Source of the DNA: Chloroflexota bacterium
GTDB lineage: Bacteria > Chloroflexota > Chloroflexia > Thermomicrobiales > UBA6265
Assembly: GCA_023389575.1 (NCBI GenBank)
Contig: JAEWEG010000058.1
Span: 15,764-79,763 of the forward strand
Direction of reading: 5' to 3'
DNA: 64,000 nt
Below are positions 766 through 42,012 of the stretch, piece after piece. Position numbers and translations under genes: made by a program. Under the pieces are notes generated by a model that made no database searches, was not told the origin of the DNA, and saw nothing but the letters and a program-made list of their open reading frames with translations. The number at the start of each line of letters is the position of its first letter. The stretch's first letter is position 1.

Positions 766-841
766 GCCCTCGTAGCTCAACGGATAGAGCGCTTGTCTTC
801 GGAACAAGAGGCTAGGGGTTCGAGTCCCTTCGAGGGTACCA
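766..841 (+). tRNA. tRNA-Arg, anticodon TCG
   Basis: Cloverleaf read by hand: acceptor GCCCTCG/CGAGGGT, anticodon stem CTTGT/ACAAG with loop CTTCGGA, T-loop TTCGAGT, encoded CCA. Confidence 0.9.
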
Positions 842-842
842 A
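797..842 (+). repeat. attL core (46 bp, inside tRNA-Arg)
   Basis: cttcggaacaagaggctaggggttcgagtcccttcgagggtaccaa is identical to 6940..6985; flanking bases differ on both sides. Confidence 0.9.
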
Positions 843-866
843 AAAAGCCCGGAATCATGGGCTTTT
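843..866 (+). terminator. Hairpin plus T-run after tRNA-Arg
   Basis: aaaagccc-ggaatcat-gggctttt directly after the CCA. Confidence 0.55.
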
Positions 867-906
867 CCTCAGTCGTAAGGAAATTCTAGTCGTACGGGGC
901 GGGAAA

Positions 907-925
907 TGTGAGCGAAAAGTGAGCG
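907..925 (+). repeat. Tandem TGTGAGCG motifs (putative integrase arm-type site, left end)
   Basis: tgtgagcgaaaagtgagcg; near-identical tgtgagcgaaatgtgagcg at 6792..6810 in the same orientation. Confidence 0.5.
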
Positions 926-1099
926 CCGCGTTTCTCGTGACGAAGTCGCCGGCGGCTGATCCTCAGGAATCAGCCGCCAACCTCACAACCGAATGGGAAC
1001 GGGACAATGGATTCAGGGATAGCCATCTGATTCCAGCTTTGCTGTACTCGGGTAGGCATGGAATCGCGTTGAAGGGGCCTAGCCGCCACGGAGACGAAC

Positions 1100-1142
1100 G
1101 AAACCCCGGCACGAGTGTCCCTGACACCAATGCCGGGGTTTC
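1100..1142 (-). terminator. Hairpin downstream of the terminase operon
   Basis: gaaaccccggca...tgccggggtttc inverted repeat 40 bp after the stop at 1183. Confidence 0.5.
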
Positions 1143-1182
1143 CGTCGCTCTCAGGGCAAATACGGGCCGTGATTTCGATGGC

Positions 1183-1881
1183 CTACTCGAAATCCCTTCC
1201 CCATTCGGTGACCAGTTCGTCGATCCAGGCCCGCGATGCCGGTACCACCTGGGTCGCGAGTCCGAGCGCCGTCACCAGGTCGTCGTGCGTTCCCACCTTG
1301 AAGGCGCCGTACTTGTCGTTGGCGTTCTGGTCGACCCGGATTTCGTAGTCGAGCAGTTCAGCCGTCAGGGCCCGCGCCTCGGGATGGTCGGGCGGTAGGT
1401 GGATGCGATCGCTCTGGAATAGGGCCTTGAGCCGGCTCACCAGCCACGCCTTGCCGATCGTGACGCGGCTATCCGCCGCGGTCCGCCGGTCGCCATGGGT
1501 GAAATAGCACGGGGTCGCCTGGGCGCCGGCCTCGTCGAGCAGGTCCATCACGGGCTGCCCGACGCCGGTGGCATCAACGAACGTCCACAGGGTGACTGTC
1601 GGATCCGTCACCCTGTGGAGATCAGCCGCCTCCTGCCGGGCCGTCTTGACCGCGTTTCGCTGGATGTCGGCTATCCGGCGGGCGACGACCGGGTACGGCG
1701 TGCCGAGCGGGAGACGCTGGAGGAACCGGCTCTCGAAGTGCCAGTCAGGTATCTCATCGTCGGGGCGACGGTTCCGGGCTTCAAGCAGCGCGATCGCGGT
1801 CGGGTCCCGCTTTTGCCCGAGGTCGACGCCGAGCATGAGGTTGATCGCGAAGGGATAAGCGTCCTGATTCAGAGTTCCCAT
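1183..1881 (-). CDS. Terminase large subunit, C-terminal RNase H-like nuclease part
   Basis: ORF 1183..1983; the internal ATG at 1881 overlaps the upstream stop. Acidic motifs GVDLGQKRDPTAIA, FVDATGVG and HDDLVTALGLA are typical of the TerL nuclease domain. Confidence 0.7.
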   Translation of the reverse strand: MGTLNQDAYPFAINLMLGVDLGQKRDPTAIALLEARNRRPDDEIPDWHFESRFLQRLPLGTPYPVVARRIADIQRNAVKTARQEAADLHRVTDPTVTLWTFVDATGVGQPVMDLLDEAGAQATPCYFTHGDRRTAADSRVTIGKAWLVSRLKALFQSDRIHLPPDHPEARALTAELLDYEIRVDQNANDKYGAFKVGTHDDLVTALGLATQVVPASRAWIDELVTEWGRDFE

Positions 1882-2648
1882 GTGGTTACCTCGCGGGCGA
1901 AGGCCCGTGCTACTTCGTCGGATGAAAACGCTTGGGTCTCGGCATCCATGAACTGGCAGAGATATTCCTGGTTGAACCACCACTCGCCTAGCTGGTCGCG
2001 TTCCTCGGCCAGAAACTCCCGGCTAATTCGCGGGCATTGATCCGCGGGAACCTCCACGCGTTTCCAGAGGTGGCGCCCATGCCAGGCATCGCTCCACCAC
2101 CCACGCTTGCCGAACGGTGTCGACAGGGCGACCAGGCGACCATTGGAGACCGCGAGCATGGGCCGGACGCTCGCGTAGAGGTCGTCATGCACGCGGCTGG
2201 CCTCGTCAATCAAGAGCAGGCGCACCGCCGAGATTCCGCGAATCGTCTTTTCCGTGGCGGGAAGGCTCAGGACCCGGCTGCCGTTCGTCAGTTCGAGGCG
2301 TAGGAATGTTTCGGCGGTGGCTGGTACGGTCGCCCCAGATGCCGCGTAGAGACCGGCGAGGACGCGGAAGAACTCCGACGATTGCCTCAACGATGGGCTG
2401 AGGATCACTACCAGGCTGCCGGGCTCGTAGAGCGCGGTGTGAAGGCCCAGCAGGGCCGTGATGGTCGTCTTGCCGCTTTGCCGCGAGCAGTTGAGCAACA
2501 TTCGGGGGCTGGTGCTCCGGAGGACATCGGCCTGCCAGTCGTCAGGGTCGATGCCAACACGACTGGCGAACACCACCGGATCGAGCGCGGCCGCAAGGTC
2601 ACCGGCAAGGCCTGAGATAGGCCCAGGGGCGGCGCTAATCGGCGGCAT
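1869..2648 (-). CDS. Terminase large subunit, N-terminal ATPase part
   Basis: Walker A SRQSGKTT and Walker B LLLIDEA, with TerL-like context (DPDDWQADVL). Confidence 0.75.
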   Translation of the reverse strand: MPPISAAPGPISGLAGDLAAALDPVVFASRVGIDPDDWQADVLRSTSPRMLLNCSRQSGKTTITALLGLHTALYEPGSLVVILSPSLRQSSEFFRVLAGLYAASGATVPATAETFLRLELTNGSRVLSLPATEKTIRGISAVRLLLIDEASRVHDDLYASVRPMLAVSNGRLVALSTPFGKRGWWSDAWHGRHLWKRVEVPADQCPRISREFLAEERDQLGEWWFNQEYLCQFMDAETQAFSSDEVARAFAREVTTWEL

Positions 2649-3135
2649 GGTTGGTGTCCCTTTCGATCGCCTGGAGCCCCGCAGCGACCGCCTGGGCGGC
2701 GTCGGGATAGGGCCGCAGGGCGGTCATCAGGAGGGTCCGCACCTGGATCCATTGCGGGCTCATGATCACGTTGACGGTCGGGCGCCGATCGAGTTCACCC
2801 TCGACTTCGAGCAGGGTCTCGATACAGGCCCGGGCCTCACGAATCCCCATCAGCGCGGTCCGGTAGTCGCCGGCCTTCTCGGCCTTCCCCAGGAGTTCGA
2901 TCGCCTTGCGACGTAGCTCCTGTATCTGGCCGAGCAGATCATCAGCGGCGGCAACTTCGCTGGCCTCCCGCGCCTTGGCCAGTGTGGCCGGCAAGTGGTC
3001 AGCCTTGTGCCGTTTCAGCGCCGTCTCTGAAAGTCCGAAACGGTCCGCTATCGTCCGGTATGTGGTGCCGTCCACCAGCGCCCGGTCGATCGCCGGGCGC
3101 TGGGCATGGCTGCATATGGTGCAGGTGCGAGGCAT
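2635..3135 (-). CDS. Small terminase-like / HTH DNA-binding protein
   Basis: N-terminal Cys pair plus HTH (MPRTCTICSH...YRTIADRFGLSETALKRH), helical C-terminus, position directly upstream of terL with a 14-nt overlap. Confidence 0.5.
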   Translation of the reverse strand: MPRTCTICSHAQRPAIDRALVDGTTYRTIADRFGLSETALKRHKADHLPATLAKAREASEVAAADDLLGQIQELRRKAIELLGKAEKAGDYRTALMGIREARACIETLLEVEGELDRRPTVNVIMSPQWIQVRTLLMTALRPYPDAAQAVAAGLQAIERDTNHAAD

Positions 3136-3137
3136 GC

Positions 3138-3536
3138 CTAGATCCGATTCCGATAGCGAGCGACCGAGCGGGCCTCGGCGTCCCGGTCTTGCTGAGCGAG
3201 CCGGTGCCGGTGAAGCAGGTCGGGGAGCGCCGCTTTCGCTTCGGCATCGGTGGTTCCGGGAACCGACTTCACGTAGTCGGCCATGAGCTGGGTCTCCAGG
3301 TCGGCGCGGGCTTGGCGAGCACGGGCCGCGGAATCATCCTCTCGGCCCTGATCGCGTTCGTATTTGGCGGTCAGGGCGGCTTTGGACCGTCGCATCGCCA
3401 TTTGGAGGCGGTCTTGGTAGGCCGACGGCCTCGTGTCGTACTCCGGCAATCCGCTTGGCGGAGGGGTGACGCCTTGGCTCCGGAGATATTCGATCGCGTG
3501 CTGTTTGATGTCGTCGTCAGTGGGCTTGGTTGCCAT
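3138..3536 (-). CDS. Hypothetical protein (132 aa, charged, helical)
   Basis: Internal ATG (MATKPTDDD...) of track ORF 3138..4538. Upstream of it the ORF overlaps better genes in other frames. Confidence 0.5.
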   Translation of the reverse strand: MATKPTDDDIKQHAIEYLRSQGVTPPPSGLPEYDTRPSAYQDRLQMAMRRSKAALTAKYERDQGREDDSAARARQARADLETQLMADYVKSVPGTTDAEAKAALPDLLHRHRLAQQDRDAEARSVARYRNRI

Positions 3537-3610
3537 TGTGGAGTTCCTGTTCGTGAGTAACGAGGATCGATCGACGCAGGTGCCGATCGACGGGGAGAGC
3601 GTGCTACCGG

Positions 3611-3889
3611 TCAGGGCGGCCGCGGCTCGTGCGAAATGGCCCTCACAAGGGCCAGCAACGACCTGTGTGAACACAAAAGGCCGGCCGTGGCGGCTGGGCA
3701 GCAACACTTGCCACGAGCGTCCAGAACGTAACGGCCTCCACCAGGGCGCCAGGCGACCGCCGATCCATCTGGCCGGCATTCGATCCGCATCCCACGAGAA
3801 AGTGCTCTCGTGATGAGCCGGTCGACCGTGGCCTGAGTGGCGCCGGGGAGGGTGAGCTGATAACCGGCCCACCGAATCGGCTCGGTCAT
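3611..3889 (-). CDS. SWIM-type zinc-finger protein
   Basis: CxC-x10-CxH signature KCCCPAATAGLLCSH; ATGA start/stop overlap with the upstream gene at 3886..3889. Confidence 0.55.
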   Translation of the reverse strand: MTEPIRWAGYQLTLPGATQATVDRLITRALSRGMRIECRPDGSAVAWRPGGGRYVLDARGKCCCPAATAGLLCSHRSLLALVRAISHEPRPP

Positions 3890-4656
3890 ACGTCGCCCTC
3901 TTCCATGGCCTGCCTGAACGACGATTTGAATTCGGCCTGCCACGAGCGGCGGCGGCTGCCGATGTCGCGCCACTTCCGCGTGAATGTTTCGGTGAAGGCG
4001 TCGATGTCGTGGTCCGAATAGCCCCGACCCTGCTTACGTGCCCAGTCGCGCGTCCCGCGCGTGATGGCGAAGTCCGCAGGCATGTAGTCGCCAAGCGGAT
4101 GGTCTTCGTCGGCTTCGTTGATCGGTTCTTCGACATCGGGATTTTCGGCGGAATTTCGCTCCGGCTCGTCAGAGCCAATTGGCGCTTCGCGCCCAACGGA
4201 AGTTCCGTCAGGAACTTCATCGGTACGGGTACGGGTACGGGTACGGGTACGGGGTTCGGTTTTGCTTCGTTTTGCTTCAAGCAACGGTGAAGCATCCTGC
4301 TTCGGTTTTGCTTCGCGGCGAGATTCACCAGATCGAAGCCCGCCGATTCGGCCGGCCTCGGCTCGTTTTTCTCGTATTGACAGCGCGTCTTCCCGACTCG
4401 GCTGATAGTCGAGGTAGTCGTGGATCTGGTACCCGCCCTCGGCGTCTTCCCACAGCCCGGCGGCCACGAGCTTGCCGGCCTCGGTGATCGCGTCGAAGTC
4501 GGCCATGCGGCGGAGGTGTGCGACGGGCACGAGACCATCGGTCAGGTAGCGCGCCGCGTAGCACAGGCCGCGCACGAACAGGCATTCGGCGAGCGGCCCG
4601 ACTTCGAGCACCTTTGGGTGGTCGGTGAACTGGTCGTCAATCTTGACCCATGCCAT
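3886..4656 (-). CDS. Phage or plasmid replication-associated protein-like
   Basis: The N-terminus MAWVKIDDQFTDHPKV...GLCYAARYLTDGLVP resembles phage replisome-organizer/DnaD-like N-domains. Central acidic linker with a (TR)5 repeat. Function is an inference. Confidence 0.4.
   Translation of the reverse strand: MAWVKIDDQFTDHPKVLEVGPLAECLFVRGLCYAARYLTDGLVPVAHLRRMADFDAITEAGKLVAAGLWEDAEGGYQIHDYLDYQPSREDALSIREKRAEAGRIGGLRSGESRREAKPKQDASPLLEAKRSKTEPRTRTRTRTRTDEVPDGTSVGREAPIGSDEPERNSAENPDVEEPINEADEDHPLGDYMPADFAITRGTRDWARKQGRGYSDHDIDAFTETFTRKWRDIGSRRRSWQAEFKSSFRQAMEEGDV
4223..4252. repeat. Hexanucleotide microsatellite (GTACGG)x5
   Basis: Five perfect tandem copies inside the rep-like CDS, encoding RTRTRTRTRT on the minus strand. 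Confidence 0.95.
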
Positions 4657-4762
4657 CAGCCACCGCCTTTCCCGGTGCCGTCGGCCCGGCCTGATATGCT
4701 GCTCATGACTCTCTCGATTCTTGAAACCCCCACCGGCTTGCAGCCCCGGTGGGGGTTTCGCG

Positions 4763-4996
4763 TTATGCGGTTTCGGTTGGGTCGGTGGCCGGTGCTTCTC
4801 CGGCCAACCAGGCCTCTACCTGACGGCGGCTGAATCGGTATTCCTTGCCGAGCTTCAGCGTTGGGAACGGAAAGCCGTCGGTCCGGGCCATCGCGTGGGC
4901 TTTGGTGGAACCGATCCGGAGCCGAGCGCGCAGCTCTTCGAGGGTGTACAGGGTGTCGGATTCCGGTACTCGCGCCGGCGCGGTCTTGCTCACCAT
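4763..4996 (-). CDS. xis: Excisionase / AlpA-MerR-like HTH protein
   Basis: 77-aa protein LYTLEELRARLRIGSTKAHAMARTDGFPFPTLKLGKEYRFSRRQVEAWL, a typical excisionase-family HTH. Internal ATG of ORF 4763..5068. Confidence 0.7.
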   Translation of the reverse strand: MVSKTAPARVPESDTLYTLEELRARLRIGSTKAHAMARTDGFPFPTLKLGKEYRFSRRQVEAWLAGEAPATDPTETA

Positions 4997-5139
4997 GGAA
5001 GCCTCCTGGCATAAGTCGGGTCGCCGGTTCGCAACTAGGCACAGGCGACAATGGACGTTGGCAATCACTATAAGGCGAACATTAGTTCTGTGCCAGTACT
5101 TTATGAAACGTTTGTACGGTTTGTGCTCATGCTAGGGTG

Positions 5140-5181
5140 GCAAGCGATCGCTTACATTTACATTCGCAAGCGAACGCTTGC
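5140..5181. promoter_or_regulatory. Two 16-bp palindromic operators in the AT-richer control region of the element
   Basis: gcaagcgatcgcttac (5140..5155) and gcaagcgaacgcttgc (5166..5181), upstream of the xis-rep-terminase operon. Confidence 0.5.
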
Positions 5182-5211
5182 ATTCACCTTTGACGCTGCA
5201 GGTTCTCATGC

Positions 5212-5244
5212 AAAAGCCCCTCGCGACTTAATCGCGAGGGGCTT
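5212..5244 (-). terminator. Rho-independent terminator of the int operon
   Basis: gcccctcgcga-cttaa-tcgcgaggggc followed by a T-run on the minus strand. Confidence 0.7.
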
Positions 5245-5276
5245 AGGAGGGGGGCCATGAGGTCAGTGAGCAGCGT

Positions 5277-5522
5277 TCAGCGGTCCACCACCTTGTGGTC
5301 ACGGACGTAGGGCGCCGCGAAGGCCTCGCGTATCTCCTGATTGGCCTCGGCGCTCACCGGGTCGAATTGCAGGCCATGATCCCCGGGCCGGGGTTCGAGG
5401 TGGCTGGTTTCGTTCGTCAGGATTCCCAAGGGAATCCCGGAGGGGTAGGCGTCGCAGGTGGCGATGGGCTTGTCGTCGTTACGGTAGCGCCGGCATAGCT
5501 GGCACTGGGAGATGTACGTCAT
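5277..5522 (-). CDS. Hypothetical small Cys-containing protein
   Basis: 81 aa; its start overlaps the integrase stop (ATGA), suggesting translational coupling. Confidence 0.45.
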   Translation of the reverse strand: MTYISQCQLCRRYRNDDKPIATCDAYPSGIPLGILTNETSHLEPRPGDHGLQFDPVSAEANQEIREAFAAPYVRDHKVVDR

Positions 5523-6754
5523 TGTGGTGCGCCATCCGTTCCGGTACGGGTAGCCCTTGCCAGGAACGCCTCCACGGCCCGCGTCGCCGCGCCCTGATCT
5601 TCGGCCGTGAGGTGGCCATAGGTGCCGAAGGTAGTCGAGGTATCGGTGTGCCCGATCTTTTGGGCGACGATCGCCAGGGACGCGCCGCCTCGGAGCATGG
5701 TTGTCGCCGCCAGGTGTCGCAGGTCGTGAGTGCTGATCGCGGGCACCTTCGCCGCCTCCATGACCGCCCGCCGGTGTCGGGCAACCGAATCCGGCCGCAC
5801 GACGCCCCCGAGTTCGTTAGTGACGATCAGGTCATGGTCGGGCCAGATATCGGCCAGGTCACGGCGTCGGAACGCCTGCCGGTCCCGGTGCCGTCTGAGG
5901 GCGGCCACCGTGGCGCCGGTGAGGGTAACGCTGCGCTGGGAGCCCGCCGTTTTCGCCCGGGGTTGGATCAGCGGGGCCCCACCGTTGGCGAGGTCAGGAA
6001 CCACCGTCTGCACAACCGTCGCCGTGCAGGCGGTTTCGTCAGCATTCCAGTGCAGGTCTCCCCATCGCAGACCCAGTGCCTCGGCCCGGCGGAATCCCTC
6101 CAGCGCGGTCAGGTGCCAGAAAACGCCCAACTGGTCGCGCTCACCGGCATCGAGAAATTGACCCAGGTGATCGGGAGTCCAGACGGGGAGGTCACGCCGG
6201 GACTTCGGGCTCGGCAGCCTGATACCGGCCGCCGGGTTGGCGGCGAGGATGCCGTCTTCCACCGCCTCATCAAGGGCGCTCCGCAGGACAAGCAGCGACC
6301 GGTTCTGCAGTTGGGCGCCCATCCCGCCGGCCTGCCAGGTGCGAACCAGATCCTTCACGTCGGCCCGGGTCAGGGCGGTCACGTCCATGTCTCCGATCGA
6401 CGGCCGCACATGCAGGCGCCAGGCTCCCTCATACCCGGCGTAGGTGTTGCTGGTGACGTGTACCTTGCGGCCGGTGAGCCATCCCGTGACCACAGCGGCG
6501 ACGGTCCAGACGCGGGGGGCTACTGACGACTCGCTAAGCCGCTTGCGCTCGGCACGGGTCACATACGCCCCGTTCTCGACTTCCAGCGTTGCCTTCCGTT
6601 CGGCGCGCTCGGCATCGCCCTTGCGGGTGAATGTGCCGACGGTATCCCACGCCCGTTTGCCGGTGCTCGGGTCCGGAACATACACCCGCACCATGTACCG
6701 CGTGGCCGGTTTCCCGCCCTTGCCCTTCGCCTTCGATTCGCGCTCAACAATCAT
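5519..6754 (-). CDS. int: Tyrosine recombinase / phage integrase
   Basis: C-terminal catalytic region with R...HDLRHLAATTML...LGHTDTSTTFGTYGHL. ORF extends to 6817; the probable start is MIVERESK at 6754. Confidence 0.9.
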   Translation of the reverse strand: MIVERESKAKGKGGKPATRYMVRVYVPDPSTGKRAWDTVGTFTRKGDAERAERKATLEVENGAYVTRAERKRLSESSVAPRVWTVAAVVTGWLTGRKVHVTSNTYAGYEGAWRLHVRPSIGDMDVTALTRADVKDLVRTWQAGGMGAQLQNRSLLVLRSALDEAVEDGILAANPAAGIRLPSPKSRRDLPVWTPDHLGQFLDAGERDQLGVFWHLTALEGFRRAEALGLRWGDLHWNADETACTATVVQTVVPDLANGGAPLIQPRAKTAGSQRSVTLTGATVAALRRHRDRQAFRRRDLADIWPDHDLIVTNELGGVVRPDSVARHRRAVMEAAKVPAISTHDLRHLAATTMLRGGASLAIVAQKIGHTDTSTTFGTYGHLTAEDQGAATRAVEAFLARATRTGTDGAPQ

Positions 6755-6791
6755 TCCAGAACTCCATTCCCGCCACGCACGTCCCACAATT

Positions 6792-6810
6792 TGTGAGCGA
6801 AATGTGAGCG
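6792..6810 (+). repeat. Tandem TGTGAGCG motifs (putative integrase arm-type site, right end, in int promoter region)
   Basis: See 907..925; lies 38 bp upstream of the probable int start (6754). Confidence 0.5.
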
Positions 6811-6939
6811 TCACCAACCGGCGCTATCCGGTACTCGCCGATAGTATACGACGGGTGGGACGGGAAAACGCTTGGTTTCATGGGGAAATTGCGGCGAACG
6901 ATGATGTTAGGCAACGCTAGGCGGTGACAGAAAATAGAA

Positions 6940-6985
6940 CTTCGGAACAAGAGGCTAGGGGTTCGAGTCCCTTCGAGGGTACCAA
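6940..6985 (+). repeat. attR core (46 bp duplicated tRNA-Arg 3' part)
   Basis: Exact copy of 797..842, located 123 bp beyond the integrase ORF. Confidence 0.9.
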
Positions 6986-7010: not shown

Positions 7011-7038
7011 GCCCCGGCGCTCACGCTGGGGCTTTGTT
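7011..7038 (+). terminator. Hairpin plus T-rich tail after attR (candidate native tRNA-Arg terminator)
   Basis: gccccggcg-ctca-cgctggggc then tttgttgt. Confidence 0.55.
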
Positions 7039-22416: not shown

Positions 22417-22493
22417 TGGGGTGCCTTACGGGGCTCGAACCCGTCACCTCCGGTTCCACAGACCAGCGCTCTGCCGAATGAGCTAAAGGCACC
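22417..22493 (-). tRNA. tRNA-His, anticodon GTG (with encoded G-1 and CCA)
   Basis: Reverse complement GGTGCCTTTAGCTCA...CTGGTCTGTGGAACCGG...GGTTCGAGCCCCGTAAGGCACCCCA. Confidence 0.9.
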
Positions 22494-22504
22494 ATATGCG
22501 ATCA

Positions 22505-22848
22505 CATGCAGGAAAAGGAGTAAGCCGAGTTCTGTTCGTGATGGCCATCTCTCTCAACCGATGCGGTTGGCCACGTCGTCGCCTTCGTGGCGGCTCTCGA
22601 CTTCCGGCCTTGGCGAGCAACCTGCTAGCGGCCGAATCGGAGATTGCTGCGGGGAGGATTGCCCTTTTCAGCCCACGTGGCCTGAGCCAGCGGGAATGGT
22701 TTCTGTTGCTCTCACGCCTTGCGGCGTGCCTGTGCGGACTGTCAACGCGCGAACGCGTTTCCCCGGCTTTCACCGGGCACCCTTGCTCTTCGCAGCTCGG
22801 ACTTTCCTCTAATCCACTAGGGATCAGCGGCCATCCTCTTCTCGCCGC
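22505..22848 (-). ncRNA. rnpB: RNase P RNA, bacterial type A
   Basis: The reverse complement contains AGAGGAAAGTCCGAGC, AGAGCAACAGAAACC and ACGAACAGAACTCGGCTTA. P1 pairing is GCGAGAAGAGGA / TCCTTTTCCTGC. Ends are approximate (+/-5 nt). Confidence 0.9.
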
Positions 22849-22908
22849 ATGTGAGTATTCGCATTTGAAACGTGCGAGGACCAGTATCCATTCTCAGGAA
22901 TCCAGCCC

Positions 22909-22994
22909 GGTGCCGAGGGGGAGATTCGAACTCCCACGGGGTTACCCCCACTACGCCCTGAACGTAGCGCGTCTGCCTGTTCCGCCACATCGGC
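22909..22994 (-). tRNA. tRNA-Leu, anticodon CAG (long variable arm)
   Basis: GCCGATGTGGCGGAAC...CTACGTTCAGGGCGTAG...TGGGGGTAACCCCGT...GGGAGTTCGAATCTCCC. One U-C mismatch in the acceptor stem; CCA not fully encoded. Confidence 0.85.
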
Positions 22995-23018
22995 CTATTC
23001 TTGTGTGCCTGCCCGCGC

Positions 23019-23093
23019 GGAGCCGACCTGCGGACTCGAACCGCAGACCTGCTGTTTACGAAACAGCTGCTCTACCAACTGAGCTAGGCCGGC
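23019..23093 (-). tRNA. tRNA-Thr, anticodon CGT
   Basis: GCCGGCCTAGCTCAGTTGGTAGAGCAGCTGTTTCGTAAACAGCAGGTCTGCGGTTCGAGTCCGCAGGTCGGCT. Confidence 0.9.
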
Positions 23094-39759: not shown

Positions 39760-41520
39760 CTATTTTACCGTCACACTCTTCGCGAGGTTGCGGGGGTAAT
39801 CCGGATCGAGGTTCCGCTGGATGGCCACGCGATAGGCGAGCGACTGGGCTACGAAAATCTGCACGAGGGCGTTCGCCGGACCATGATCGAGGAAGGAAAA
39901 TTGCTGATCCACGCCACGATCCAGGTGCAGCCCGATACCAATAGTGTACCCCCCACGACTGTGGAGCTCCTGGGCGGTTGACGAGGTATCGGTGACGAAC
40001 CGGTCGTTCGTGGTGAAAACCAGGCAGGGGGTGCCGGGCTCGATGAGGGCGATGGCGCCATGTTTCAGTTCACCGGCGGCGAAGGCCTCGGCGTGTACGT
40101 AGCTCGCTTCCTTGATCTTCAGCGCGGCTTCCTGGGCCACCCCATGGCCATCGCCCTTGCCGACCACGTAGACGTGCTCGGAGTTGGCGATCACGTCGCT
40201 GACCGAGGCGATGAACGCCTCCAGGTCCGGGTTGGTCCAGAGATCGTCCAGTGTCGCGGCGACCTGGCGAAGCGCGTCTTCTAGCTCGTCGAGCCGGTCG
40301 TCCAGGATGTACGCGGCCGACAGCAGCCGGCTGAGCATGCCCAGAAGGGACTTGGTGGCGAGGACGGACCGCTCGCGGCCGGCGTCCAGGGAGATGACAT
40401 CGCTGGCCATGCGAGCGGCGCTGGAGTGGACCACGTTGGTGATGGTGACGAGCCTGGCACCGTGCGACTCCGCCGTTCGCATCGCTTCCAGCACATCGGC
40501 GGTCTCGCCACTCTGGGTGATGGAGACCACGAGCGTGCCGGCGTCCAGGAACGGAGCGACATCATCGAATTCCGAGGCGGGAACCGCCACCGCTCGCCGG
40601 CCCGCCATGTGGCCGAGCCAGGACGCTCCGATGCGCGCCGCGTAATAGGCGGAGCCGCAGCCGGTGAGGATGACCTGGTTTGCCGCGGCGATCTGGCTCG
40701 CGAGGCGTTGGGACGCCTCGATGTCCTGGAGGTGTCGTCGCAGCACGGTTGGCTGCTCCGACATCTCCTTGGTCATGAAATGGCTGTGGATGCCGAGTTC
40801 CTCGACGGAGGCATCGGGCACGTCGTGCGCGTCCGGGAGCGGCAGTTGCTGGCCGTCGTAGGAGATGGCGGTGATGCCATTCGCGTCCAGGCGGATGACG
40901 GCACCATTGGGCGCGATGACCATGCTGGACGCCTTGCCGGCCAGGGCGAACGGATCGGAGGCGATGCAGGCGCCGTCCTCGCCCATGCCGACCACGAGCG
41001 GCGAGACGTTCATGGCGGCGGCGATGACCTCGCTCTCCTGGTCGATCGCGATCACGGCGTTCTGGCCGGCGAGCCGGGGAAAGACCTCGCATAGGGCCTC
41101 AACGATGGTGGAACCAGCGTTGACGCGCTCGCCGAGCATGTGGGCGATGACCTCGGAATCGGTTTCGGATCGAAACGCGAGTCCGGGGGGCAGCTCAAGC
41201 TGAAGCTCGACGGCGTTTTCAACGATGCCGTTGTGGACGATGGCGACCCGGCCAGTGCTGTCCAGATGCGGATGGGCGTTGCTGTCGGTCACGCCACCGT
41301 GCGTGGCCCAGCGGGTGTGGCCGACAGCGATGCGCGACATGGCGTCGAATGTGAACGAGGTCGGGACCTTGCCGATCTTCTTCACGGTTTCGAGGCGCTG
41401 ATCGGCCTTCCAGACGATGCCCCAGGAGTCGTAGCCCCGGTATTCAAGGCTCTTGAGGGCCTTGCCGACGGTGGTGGTCACGGAGCGCTCGGTTCCGACG
41501 TAGCCAAAGATTCCACACAT
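39760..41520 (-). CDS. glmS: Glutamine--fructose-6-phosphate aminotransferase
   Basis: Starts MCGIFGYVG (catalytic Cys2) after GGAGG. Two SIS domains; ends ...NLAKSVTVK. The 70-codon ORF extension to 41730 is rejected. Confidence 0.95.
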   Translation of the reverse strand: MCGIFGYVGTERSVTTTVGKALKSLEYRGYDSWGIVWKADQRLETVKKIGKVPTSFTFDAMSRIAVGHTRWATHGGVTDSNAHPHLDSTGRVAIVHNGIVENAVELQLELPPGLAFRSETDSEVIAHMLGERVNAGSTIVEALCEVFPRLAGQNAVIAIDQESEVIAAAMNVSPLVVGMGEDGACIASDPFALAGKASSMVIAPNGAVIRLDANGITAISYDGQQLPLPDAHDVPDASVEELGIHSHFMTKEMSEQPTVLRRHLQDIEASQRLASQIAAANQVILTGCGSAYYAARIGASWLGHMAGRRAVAVPASEFDDVAPFLDAGTLVVSITQSGETADVLEAMRTAESHGARLVTITNVVHSSAARMASDVISLDAGRERSVLATKSLLGMLSRLLSAAYILDDRLDELEDALRQVAATLDDLWTNPDLEAFIASVSDVIANSEHVYVVGKGDGHGVAQEAALKIKEASYVHAEAFAAGELKHGAIALIEPGTPCLVFTTNDRFVTDTSSTAQELHSRGGYTIGIGLHLDRGVDQQFSFLDHGPANALVQIFVAQSLAYRVAIQRNLDPDYPRNLAKSVTVK

Positions 41521-41719
41521 AACGATTCCTCCCCGGAAAATGCCCGCGACGGCGCGTCGCGCGACATGGAGAGCCCGCCTGATTGGCATGCGGTATCGAT
41601 GCATTCGCTCCATGCCGCGAGGCATGGCGATAACGCAACAGGCAAGGGCCCGGAATTGGTTGTCCAAGCAATTGGGGAGAGGGGAGGGGAGCGGTCCAAG
41701 CCGCTGCGTGTGATGCCAC

Positions 41720-41857
41720 GTGTGAACCACTTTGTCGATTCGTCGCCGAACCGGTTTGTTGGTGCACTAACGACCGTGGTTGCCGGGGAATCATCCGCCG
41801 AATGTTTCGATGAATTCCCGCCTCGTCAACTCGATGTCCTGTCGAGTCCTGGCGCTA
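41720..41857 (-). ncRNA. glmS ribozyme (GlcN6P-dependent self-cleaving riboswitch)
   Basis: Minus strand: A/GCGCCAGGAC...GAGTTGACGAGGCGGGAATTCATCGAAACATTCGGCGGATGATTCCCCGGC...CCAACAAACCGG...GACAAAG. This matches remembered core blocks (AGCGCC, UUGACGAGG, AUCGAA-UUCGGCGGAUG, CCCGGC). The 3' boundary is approximate. Confidence 0.8.
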
Positions 41858-42012
41858 ATGGGGTAACGGATAAAGCCTCCCTGTCATCCCTGAGACGAAT
41901 GGTACGTCGCCGGTGGTGGATCGGCAACCACCTGCCCGTATACTGAAGGCGCGCAATCGGCCGCTGCGCATGTCCCCGCGGCCGGCACGACCACGTTAAC
42001 AGGAGCGATCTG

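Follow-up and report, generated by a model that had tools for sequence, protein, structure and literature searches.

Established phage satellites carry either TerS alone (PMC10085698) or TerS and TerL together with capsid genes (10.1101/2022.09.08.507074), and the cfPICIs are the only described satellites with both terminase subunits (10.1101/2022.09.08.507074). The median size of PICIs is 9.5 kb (PMC10085698). For PICMI115, at 6,110 bp, headful packaging of concatemers into full-size capsids has been shown experimentally (PMC10803314), and VEIMEs/tycheposons have been found as concatemers in virions (PMC9618062). The locus described here, which lies in a 64-kb window (the whole stretch of DNA that was analyzed), is an integrative mobile element of 6.1 kb that is intact and has a complete terminase set. 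Judging from its sequence, we think it fairly probable that it is a phage satellite, equipped with a full packaging motor of its own, that loads its own DNA into helper capsids. If so, it represents a new satellite variant.

The unit spans 6,143 bp between perfect 46-nt direct repeats at 797-842 and 6940-6985 (repeat search, 100% identity). Both the att repeats, which the initial annotation had placed from the anticodon loop onward, and the other main features that it outlined for this element were recovered, and the features are as follows.

766-841, plus strand: intact tRNA-Arg(TCG) (ARAGORN; Rfam tRNA, 68.8 bits)
797-842, plus strand: attL core, 46 nt, perfect copy (repeat D1, 100% identity)
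843-866, plus strand: hairpin and T-run straight after the rebuilt tRNA (fold -11.6 kcal/mol, z -2.4)
903-925, plus strand: tandem GTGAGCG-N4-GTGAGCG, left arm (TRF period 11)
1095-1147, minus strand: strong hairpin 36 nt 3' of terL-C (inverted repeat I2; fold -54 kcal/mol, z -5.4)
1183-1881, minus strand: terL-C, 232 aa, RNase H-like nuclease of the large terminase as a stand-alone subunit (phrog_27743, 2e-18)
1869-2648, minus strand: terL-N, stand-alone large-terminase ATPase subunit, 259 aa (Terminase_6N, 2.6e-10; phrog_7579, 4.7e-65)
2635-3135, minus strand: TerS-like DNA-recognition protein, 166 aa (homology and synteny with cultured phages)
3138-3536, minus strand: orf132, lineage-specific helical-hairpin protein (AF2 pLDDT 89; dN/dS 0.21)
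3611-3889, minus strand: 92-aa protein with a CxCx8CxH motif (ORF and motif; dN/dS 0.23)
3886-4656, minus strand: replication initiator, 256 aa (phrog_2447, 2.6e-34; phrog_3926, 5e-29)
4723-4759, minus strand: 14-bp hairpin in the xis/rep gap (fold -32 kcal/mol, z -4.5)
4763-5068, minus strand: HTH_17 excisionase or AlpA-like regulator, 77 aa counted from the ATG at 4996, ORF to 5068 (Pfam HTH_17, 6.5e-08; phrog_66, 1.1e-07)
5067-5181, minus strand: control region with a promoter-like site (5067-5096) and two palindromes (sequence scan)
5214-5244, minus strand: hairpin and T-run closing the int-orf81 unit (fold -33 kcal/mol, z -5.0)
5277-5522, minus strand: orf81 (phrog_33375, 4.4e-10; dN/dS 0.12)
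5519-6817, minus strand: tyrosine integrase, 411 aa counted from the ATG at 6754, ORF to 6817 (Phage_integrase, 9e-15; phrog_1, 3e-59)
6792-6810, plus strand: second tandem GTGAGCG-N4-GTGAGCG, right arm (repeat and motif search)
6940-6985, plus strand: attR core, 46 nt, original 3' portion of the tRNA, now displaced (repeat search)

The 46-nt core runs from the anticodon loop of tRNA-Arg(TCG) to 1 nt beyond the tRNA, and the tRNA from the anticodon loop to its 3' end is contributed by the attL core of the element. The native tRNA terminator lies immediately past attR (7011-7032), and the element-borne hairpin at 843-866 may be its replacement. The two tandem GTGAGCG pairs, which overlap a 19-nt repeat (D16, 907-925 and 6792-6810, 95% identity), occur at just these two sites within the 64 kb and are probably arm-type integrase sites of the left and right arms. 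An attP junction was not found in IMG/VR, nor an empty attB junction in JGI metagenome contigs. A 6,157-nt contig consisting only of the element is no direct sign of excision or of a circular form, as a break in the assembly at the repeated core accounts for it.

All nine genes lie on the minus strand with intact reading frames, in the order int, orf81, HTH_17 xis/AlpA-like gene, rep initiator, 92-aa CxCxnCxH protein gene, orf132, TerS-like gene, terL-N, and terL-C. The integrase, which had been called intact and is borne out by its profile matches, also contains Phage_int_SAM_3 (5e-07) and a weak Arm-DNA-bind_4 match (0.0014). orf81 is co-transcribed with int, and a homolog with 73% identity adjoins int in the related locus L001. 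The HTH_17 gene is annotated as 77 aa in other assemblies. Inside the rep gene, a (GGTACG)x5.3 repeat (4222-4253) and a 10-nt repeat in two copies (4259-4278; TRF) possibly mark the origin region. The 92-aa protein, which has a homolog in L001 (67% identity) and is found in L100 as well, had been labeled SWIM; the label lacks profile support, as no Pfam match was obtained even at E<=10 and the motif alone is visible. orf132 has three homologs and no match in Pfam, PHROG, or PDB, and its AF2 model consists of two long helices with no fold match. Because the three unannotated proteins sum to 305 aa, there is no space for capsid or portal genes. Searches of the element against Pfam and PHROG yielded no capsid, portal, protease, tail, or lysis genes, which upholds the earlier view that virion genes are absent and that the terminase set is its sole morphogenetic content.

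Upstream of the promoter-like site are two palindromes, GCAAGCGTTCGCTTGC (5166-5181) and AAGCGATCGCTT (5142-5153), which could be the palindromic operators that had been proposed. The element had also been credited with its own terminators: the three strong hairpins at 1095, 4723, and 5214 were each matched by none of 200 shuffles, and a simple T-run terminator scan found 5 against 5.3 expected, no excess over chance. The hairpin at 1095-1147 is the predicted operon terminator, with a possible additional role as a packaging site, and that at 4723-4759 may be a terminator or attenuator.

Conservation within the element is highest in the packaging trio, with 77-87% amino acid identity to L001 versus 30% for int. 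What had been read as one terL gene is instead two overlapping genes, with the ATG of terL-C (nuclease, 1183-1881) sitting 13 nt inside the upstream terL-N (ATPase, 1869-2648). Both encode true terminase domains, as the initial annotation had supposed: the terL-N profile matches the solved TerL ATPase domain 4zni (E 1.3e-10), and the terL-C profile matches the TerL nuclease domains 5m1q/5m1f/5tge in the PDB (E~1e-17). Walker A (QSGKT) and Walker B (DEA) are invariant in terL-N, which is 49% identical to the TerL of Thermus phage Riverbug, and the catalytic motifs of terL-C are retained. The TerS-like protein (408 homologs of ~160-166 aa) has an N-terminal CxxC and HTH followed by a long helical hairpin (AF2 pLDDT 81). 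Its TerS-like designation is supported by homology to, and synteny with, the small gene directly 5' of TerL in Riverbug (41% identity, E 8e-33) and likewise in Meiothermus phage MMP17, but not by any TerS profile or fold match, the top PDB match being weak (2ao9, E 0.46). Between the bounded elements described below, dN/dS is 0.16-0.18 for terL-N, 0.21-0.32 for terL-C, and 0.24-0.28 for the TerS-like gene (trio overall, 0.16-0.32); the small ORFs have values of 0.12-0.23. As judged from these ratios, the trio is under purifying selection.

The element belongs to a large family, of which we found no published description. Twelve elements of 6.1-16.2 kb are flanked by perfect 27-65-nt repeats derived from nine tRNA species, and the present one is the smallest bounded member found. 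All 12 enclose an integrase and the TerS-like/TerL-ATPase/TerL-nuclease trio, and all end at the same point, after TerL-C. They also carry exchangeable replication modules (Prim-Pol, AAA_25, D5_N, PriCT, and Rep-O), regulators, and a cargo of DNA methylases, Mrr, and other restriction-endonuclease-type domains; no head or tail families (capsid, portal, tail) were detected in them. The hallmark of the family is the phage-derived packaging trio, to which an integrase, an HTH_17 gene of the AlpA/Xis type, and a replication module that can be exchanged are joined. In ~20 close relatives, the 62 ORFs found 3' of TerL-C are host genes or the int and primase of a neighboring element, and members often occur in several copies per genome and in tandem arrays. 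The terminase clade is present in reference genomes of many bacterial phyla and some methanogens, at no fewer than 569 loci, so that framing the element as specific to Chloroflexota does not hold; a Chloroflexota host for the element is itself presumed from the names that its homologs bear. Nuclease paralogs are multiplied in some clade members. In a Methanospirillum member of the wider clade, the nuclease gene is duplicated and then followed by a tape-measure-like gene. A sister element (L100/L101), apparently in the same tRNA-Arg(TCG), has DndB and a D12 methylase in place of the terminase, and the backbone can therefore persist without the trio.

The same terminase clade also occurs in real phages, in which portal and capsid genes come after TerL (Riverbug, MMP17, and the loci L012, L013, and L055) and whose genomes or contigs are 33-35 kb. 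Riverbug, MMP7/MMP17, and L012/L013 share the terminase lineage of the element (ATPase 45-50% identity) but are complete phages with portal, head-morphogenesis, protease, and major-capsid genes after TerL. The cultured Riverbug and Meiothermus phages encode TerL as one fused protein of ~416 aa; the IMG/VR phage contig L013, like the element, has a split TerL. In the tree, 11 of the 12 bounded elements cluster together, apart from the portal-bearing phages (Riverbug, MMP17, and IMG/VR contigs), which form separate deep branches. These phages are candidate helper types; no helper phage was found in the 64-kb window or linked to the host.

In the mechanism that we propose, the tyrosine integrase would recombine the 46-nt core, which has the same sequence as the 3' part of tRNA-Arg(TCG). 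Helper infection or induction would switch on the xis-to-terL operon via the palindrome-flanked promoter, an induction logic that is conjecture because a repressor gene is not evident in the element, after which the element would excise and replicate as concatemers from a Rep-dependent origin. The TerS-like protein would mark element DNA, and the two-chain TerL, which must fit the helper's portal (a compatibility that we assume), would dock there, cut the DNA, and pump it into helper procapsids. With a unit of just 6.1 kb, filling would most likely be headful with several tandem copies, perhaps ~5-6 per capsid of the 33-35 kb size found in the related phages, and the helper would supply tails and lysis. 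The trio and this mechanism together would make the element a satellite with its own full motor rather than TerS alone.

The trio could instead mainly sabotage infecting phages, by occupying procapsids or cutting DNA, and so protect the host. Interference with helpers is known for packaging genes of satellites (PMC10085698, PMC9618062), the family's methylase, Mrr, and restriction-endonuclease cargo is defense-like, and the sister element has DndB and D12 methylase at the terminase position. We nevertheless regard a defense or interference island as unlikely, since a selected ATPase, nuclease, and recognition subunit coupled to excision and replication exceeds what interference needs, and since interference and self-transfer are compatible and coincide in known satellites. 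It also seems improbable that the terminase serves concatemer processing, virion-independent transfer, or a chromosomal GTA-like or defective-prophage capsid partner. The window without a helper, the copies and tandem arrays, and the multiplied nuclease paralogs, which hint at roles beyond classical packaging, fit such uses, but the 49% identity shared with a plaque-forming phage's TerL and the retention of all motor motifs point to classical function, and a chromosomal capsid partner would still amount to a satellite mechanism. Moreover, tailed-phage packaging offers no known case of a terminase that works without a portal-bearing procapsid. A decayed prophage, left after a full temperate phage lost its head, tail, and lysis genes, is very improbable, for although the terminase genes are phage-derived and lie at the element edge where a phage head module would follow, the att cores are perfect, all nine frames are intact, 12 independently bounded elements in nine tRNA species share a common end, dN/dS between compact elements is 0.16-0.32, 11 of 12 element TerLs cluster away from those of portal-bearing phages, and the full-prophage context sought in ~20 close relatives and the 12 repeat-bounded elements was absent, in agreement with the earlier reading.

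As a candidate satellite with a private packaging motor, the element has several described counterparts. The Vibrionaceae PICMIs come close in size (PICMI115, 6,110 bp versus 6,143 bp) and share a minimal set of int, an AlpA-like gene, and replication without capsid remodeling, but they lie beside fis, have no terS or terL, and use helper packaging enzymes only, whereas the present element lies in a tRNA and has its own terminase. The marine VEIMEs/tycheposons are likewise small and integrate at tRNAs or gene ends, with an integrase, replication genes, and sometimes TerS; however, the small terminase subunit alone is reported for them, with the helper expected to supply the large one (PMC9618062). 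The cfPICIs, whose TerLs too form clades separate from phage TerLs (10.1101/2022.09.08.507074), always have genes for capsid, protease, portal, and head-tail connectors, in many cases with HNH as well, and steal nothing but tails, whereas none of these head genes was detected in the present element or family. The PICIs, SaPIs and Gram-negative PICIs included, are also small integrative islands with int, their own replication module, and cargo but without virion genes, in which an AlpA/MerR-type HTH regulator heads a co-oriented operon with the packaging-redirection gene at its far end, and the 6-12 kb members of the present family match their median size. They differ in that PICIs are described in Firmicutes and Gammaproteobacteria, both outside the host range of the present family, that the replication gene of the present element is a Rep initiator rather than a primase-replicase, that no capsid-remodeling gene was recognized in the present family, and that PICIs combine TerS only with the helper's TerL, whereas this family carries a TerS-like gene and a complete two-gene TerL.

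The element, a 6,143-bp unit inserted in a tRNA-Arg(TCG) gene, has the layout claimed for it in the initial annotation: ARAGORN and Rfam tRNA calls, perfect 46-nt repeats and the minus-strand gene set all confirm a compact tRNA-Arg-integrated element. Its features and those of its insertion site, in window coordinates, are as follows.

766-841, tRNA-Arg(TCG), called by ARAGORN with Rfam in agreement
797-842 and 6940-6985, perfect 46-nt direct repeat (att cores), start-to-start spacing 6,143 nt
843-866, element-borne hairpin and T-run, directly after the left repeat copy
1183-1881, minus strand, TerL nuclease (terL-C), 232 aa, its ATG 13 nt inside the ATPase gene and preceded by GAGG
1869-2648, minus strand, TerL ATPase (terL-N), 259 aa
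2635-3135, minus strand, TerS-like protein, 166 aa
3138-3536, minus strand, orf132, 132 aa
3611-3889, minus strand, 92-aa protein, CxCx8CxH motif only
3886-4656, minus strand, replication initiator (phrog_2447, 2.6e-34)
4763-4996, minus strand, HTH_17 excisionase/AlpA-like protein (HTH_17; phrog_66 'excisionase and transcriptional regulator')
5277-5522, minus strand, orf81, 81 aa, overlapping the integrase end
5519-6754/6817, minus strand, tyrosine integrase
7011-7032, probable native tRNA terminator, beyond the right repeat copy

The repeat starts in the anticodon loop and ends 1 base beyond the tRNA, and a putative terminator follows each copy, an arrangement that classically marks insertion of an element in the 3' part of a tRNA gene. 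The integrase is a lambda-type tyrosine recombinase with a catalytic domain (9e-15) and a weak arm-binding domain (0.0014). A tandem motif, GTGAGCG-N4-GTGAGCG, occurs at only two sites in the 64 kb, one just inside each att core, and these are putative arm-type integrase sites at the position expected of them. An exact 77-nt search of IMG/VR for the attP junction of an excised circle gave 0 matches, as did an exact 71-nt search of JGI metagenome contigs for the empty attB site (tRNA 5' half plus right flank); the latter is a weak negative, since it is the ENA, Logan and NCBI data, not those of JGI, in which the organism is present. No terminal overlaps were seen in small IMG/VR and Logan contigs. 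One 6,157-nt Logan contig that holds the element alone was considered as an excised circle and rejected, because the unique part and 2x30 nt of the core add up to its length, which matches a k=31 graph broken at the repeat and is no evidence for excision.

All credible genes between the repeats lie on the minus strand, and the nine ORFs are all accounted for. The element carries its own functions for integration and excision (the integrase and the HTH_17 xis-like protein, whose match to HTH_17/phrog_66 is not AlpA-specific) and for replication (the phrog_2447 Rep initiator), and it is without capsid, portal, tail or lysis genes. Pfam, PHROGs and tblastn with the structural proteins of related phages found no major capsid, protease, portal or head-tail adaptor/connector in the element, and the earlier statement that portal, capsid, protease and tail genes are missing was upheld. 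A capsid or portal gene cannot be hidden here, because the three unannotated proteins together amount to 305 aa. Among these, orf132 has no Pfam, PHROG or PDB match, and its confident helical-hairpin model has no fold match; a PDB sequence search with orf81 and the 92-aa protein gave no meaningful matches. The 92-aa protein had been labeled SWIM, a label that we do not retain: it has no Pfam match even at E<=10, and the CxCx8CxH motif alone is visible.

No repressor gene is evident in the element. Before xis there is a promoter-like site, with two palindromes, GCAAGCGTTCGCTTGC and AAGCGATCGCTT, upstream of it. Hairpins after terL-C, between xis and rep, and after orf81 are exceptional against shuffled controls (z = -5.4, -4.5 and -5.0, respectively), though a simple scan for intrinsic terminators by their T-runs was at chance level. 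Several smaller observations concern the same regions. Two repeats lie within the rep gene over 4222-4278, first (GGTACG)x5.3, which encodes a (Thr-Arg)n linker, and then a 10-nt x2 repeat, and the rep gene of L001 (the L handles denote comparison loci or contigs with relatives of the element or its terminase) contains perfect tandem 15-nt repeats in ~3.5 copies (L001:7722-7773); these are possible iterons or origins. A 69-aa antisense ORF at 5051-5260 (+), which spans the orf81-xis control region and was called in assembly L017 and not in L016, is probably spurious. Elsewhere in the window, a 656-aa ORF of the size of glmS (39760-41730) has a glmS ribozyme upstream of it (41712-41867, minus strand; Rfam RF00234, 89.7 bits).

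The terminase-like ORFs proved to be terminase, although the single terL gene of the initial annotation is in fact two reading frames, for ATPase and nuclease. A profile of the nuclease genes matched the TerL nuclease domains 5m1q, 5m1f and 5tge in the PDB with E~1e-17 over profile positions 4-186 of 202. The nuclease motifs GxDLG, VDATGVG and HDD are kept in alignment with the TerLs of Thermus phage Riverbug and Meiothermus phage MMP17, and across 17 sequences D20, D26, D103, H199 and D200 are invariant and D201 nearly so. The ATPase matched Terminase_6N (2.6e-10) and, as a profile against the PDB, the TerL ATPase 4zni (E 1.3e-10) and T4 gp17 (E 2e-08); Walker A residues Q57, G59, K60 and T62 and Walker B residues D148 and E149 do not vary among 14 homologs. 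Relatives of the ATPase number in the thousands; of the best 120, nearly all stand alone at ~260 aa. Both the ASCE ATPase domain and the RNase H-like nuclease of a TerL are present, but not on one polypeptide. The same 13-nt overlap in L001, L003 and L007, together with a permuted order in six loci where the nuclease gene precedes the ATPase gene, argues that the TerL halves are genuinely two predicted polypeptides and not a frameshift error. In Riverbug and MMP17 the TerL is fused (415-417 aa), and the split in the element aligns with the interdomain linker.

Further variation was seen in the layout of this module. The order TerS-like, nuclease, ATPase is found in L034, L043, L048, L053, L057 and L071, from Thermoanaerobaculia, Deltaproteobacteria and unclassified MAGs; L048 and L034 carry extra nuclease paralogs (phrog_27743) after the ATPase, so that a locus can have as many as three nuclease genes. 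In L051, L059, L073, L081 and L086 the coding regions for ATPase and nuclease do not overlap but are 0.7-3 kb apart, which suggests that genes have been inserted between the terminase halves.

The TerS-like protein is 41% identical (E 8e-33) to the product of the gene directly upstream of TerL in Riverbug, MMP17 is similar, and 408 homologs of ~160-166 aa were found. In its AlphaFold model (pLDDT 81) an HTH at the N terminus precedes a long helical hairpin. However, it matches no TerS family in Pfam, and its fold matches, though they fit this architecture, are non-significant (PDB 2ao9, E 0.46; BFVD 'terminase small subunit' entries, E~0.1-0.2). From synteny and homology, it is probably the DNA-recognition subunit.

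The alternative that the element is a decayed prophage can be weighed against its relatives. Twelve bounded elements, the window's included, lie between perfect 27-65-nt repeats derived from nine different tRNA species and measure 6.1 (window), 7.0, 8.5, 9.0, 9.3, 9.4, 9.5, 10.5, 10.6, 11.2, 12.0 and 16.2 kb. Each has an integrase and the trio of TerS-like, ATPase and nuclease genes, and their replication modules are exchangeable (Rep initiator; Prim-Pol plus AAA_25; D5_N/PriCT primase-helicases). Their other genes encode HTH regulators or are cargo, for example DNA methylases and endonucleases of the Mrr type, and no capsid, portal, protease or tail families were listed among the 64 ORFs of the 11 bounded relatives. 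In ~20 close metagenomic relatives, with ATPases of 57-71% identity, 62 sizeable ORFs lie downstream of the nuclease gene; they belong to the host or are the integrase or primase of a neighboring element. When portal, capsid, protease and adaptor proteins of Riverbug, MMP17 and the loci L011 and L013 were compared by tblastn with all loci and the window, none was found elsewhere except in L165, which is L011-like; Pfam and PHROG censuses were added because phage structural proteins diverge fast. Comparison of three bounded elements gave dN/dS values of 0.16-0.32 in the trio and 0.12-0.23 in the small uncharacterized ORFs, and the trio is the best-conserved part of the element, with 77-87% amino acid identity to L001 versus 30% for the integrase. 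The bounded relatives, downstream ORFs and dN/dS all speak against decay, and in no collection searched (12 bounded elements, ~20 close relatives) did the element turn up as part of a full prophage, the finding that would have undone the original proposal.

A sister element (L100:1-8907 plus L101; JGI Ga0494665_000018 and Logan SRR35509163) is adjacent to a tRNA-Arg(TCG) whose tRNA neighborhood is related, and shares the integrase (59% identity), the 92-aa gene (66%) and orf132 (52%). It is without terminase genes, has two small ORFs of 76 and 105 aa in their place, and carries a D12-type methyltransferase and a DndB-family protein as minus-strand cargo. With a shared backbone and no terminase in the sister, the trio appears to behave as an exchangeable module, much like terS among PICIs. 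Synteny around the site differs between these related genomes, since tRNA-His, Leu and Thr follow tRNA-Arg(TCG) within 1-2 kb in L100, while the corresponding cluster in the window (22417-23093) is 21 kb away. Two other loci, L125 and L129, lie in the same orientation on one contig (JAABUN010000034.1) and are a tandem array of related elements; an integrase lies in the 16.5 kb that separate their ATPase genes. Just past the tRNA-Lys fragment that bounds the 10.5-kb element, L003:1-5255 holds a further block resembling a mobile element, with a 787-aa NrS1-1-polymerase-like/DUF927 primase and two HTH_17 genes, which suggests serial insertions at one tRNA.

The terminase clade extends well beyond these elements. 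At least 569 loci with 48-63% identity turned up when one genome was scanned for each species, and metagenomic proteins of the clade number in the thousands. Hosts include Chloroflexota, Actinomycetota (notably Thermoleophilia), Acidobacteriota, Planctomycetota (including the isolate Zavarzinella formosa), Armatimonadota, Proteobacteria and others, frequently with several copies per genome, and most copies examined are not followed by head genes. For the window itself, a Chloroflexota-like host is predicted from the names given to the closest homologs. Some members are phages: the TerLs of Riverbug and MMP17 are followed by portal, head-morphogenesis, protease and major-head genes, the split TerL of the 34.5-kb IMG/VR contig L013 by a portal and a major head protein, and portals are present in L012 and in the Methanothrix locus L055. 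In a rough neighbor-joining tree of 166 ATPases without support values, 11 of the 12 bounded elements cluster together in a large and fairly tight group, and the portal-bearing phages form separate deep branches.

Methanogenic archaea have members of the clade too, one example being the complete Methanospirillum purgamenti genome (NZ_CP075546.1). Its locus, L090:9492-16031, contains a TerS-like gene, a TerL ATPase of 50% identity, two tandem nuclease genes (a 224-nt repeat, 80%) and then a 720-aa PhageMin_Tail (tape-measure-like) protein, with a DUF2637 protein upstream and no portal or capsid recognized in the locus. Given the duplicated nuclease and PhageMin_Tail in Methanospirillum, and one Methanothrix locus that is a provirus with a portal, counting the archaeal loci among the same compact elements is not justified. 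According to one 2025 preprint, the archaeal satellites previously described are pSSVx and pSSVi, of spindle-shaped viruses only; if the loci in methanogens turned out to be comparable, tailed archaeal viruses would have their first satellites.

At the level of sequence, the analysis establishes that the element holds an intact tRNA-core integration module, an intact replication gene and an intact, selected terminase set, with no virion genes. In the proposed life cycle, a helper phage would trigger the xis-to-terL operon, the element would then excise and replicate, the TerS-like protein would mark element DNA, and the two-chain TerL would dock on the helper portal and package that DNA. For a 6.1-kb unit, ~5-6 tandem copies would fill a 33-35-kb capsid by headful packaging, as has been demonstrated for tandem copies of the 6.1-kb PICMI115 (PMC10803314). 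The satellite reading first offered for this DNA stands in its architecture and non-prophage status, which are well supported, but the attP and empty attB junctions were not found, and tblastn with related phages' structural proteins across all loci and the window identified no helper phage. We consider the satellite mechanism reasonably likely for this element, and are much more confident that it is an intact member of a recurrent family of compact mobile elements. It is best filed under a terminase-only, satellite-like family with a two-gene TerL, the satellite lifestyle itself being a prediction. The boldest version, in which it is the type example of undescribed, multi-phylum terminase-only satellites that pirate helper procapsids with a private two-chain TerL and a cognate recognition protein, is a tentative proposal that we would not yet favor.

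If the satellite mechanism holds, satellite biology would reach Chloroflexota, Actinomycetota (Thermoleophilia), Acidobacteriota, Planctomycetota and other little-studied phyla, in which the elements also bear methylase- or restriction-type cargo, and many of the 'terminase' hits counted as phages by tools for prophage and virus prediction would need reassignment. TerL-portal docking would then also be exploitable in trans, and a natural two-subunit TerL offers a system in which to dissect cooperation between ATPase and nuclease.

Comparison with known satellites places the element outside the PICI, cfPICI and PICMI classes. PICIs carry int, an AlpA/Stl-type regulator, a primase-replicase and TerS, with no TerL (PMC10085698). 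The element has the integrase and a regulator matching HTH_17/phrog_66; unlike a PICI, which has TerS only and uses the TerL of its helper, it has TerL ATPase and nuclease genes, and in place of the primase-replicase module it has a Rep initiator only, although other family members do have Prim-Pol, AAA_25 or D5_N. cfPICIs encode TerS and TerL, always with capsid, protease, portal and connectors (10.1101/2022.09.08.507074); the element likewise encodes TerL and a TerS-like protein (a TerS by synteny and homology only), but no major capsid, protease, portal or adaptor/connector was detected in it. PICMIs lie next to fis with a core of int, alpA and primase and no terS, in contrast to the tRNA-Arg site and terminase trio seen here, and PICMIs and VEIMEs have TerS at most (PMC10803314, PMC9618062). 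Mycobacterial EPIPs carry TerS, adaptors and a tape-measure protein. In its mode of action the element would resemble a PICI or PICMI, yet it fails membership of all three named classes: it is not a PICI because of its TerL and lack of a primase, not a cfPICI because it has no capsid genes, and not a PICMI because of its tRNA site and terminase. No published satellite with a complete terminase as its only morphogenetic genes was found in the literature searched, which did not extend to most subscription journals. P4 and PLE, like PICIs, PICMIs and VEIMEs, borrow the large terminase of the helper, and cfPICIs build their own capsids. A full terminase as the only morphogenetic investment would be a third satellite strategy, in which the shell is taken and the motor is brought.
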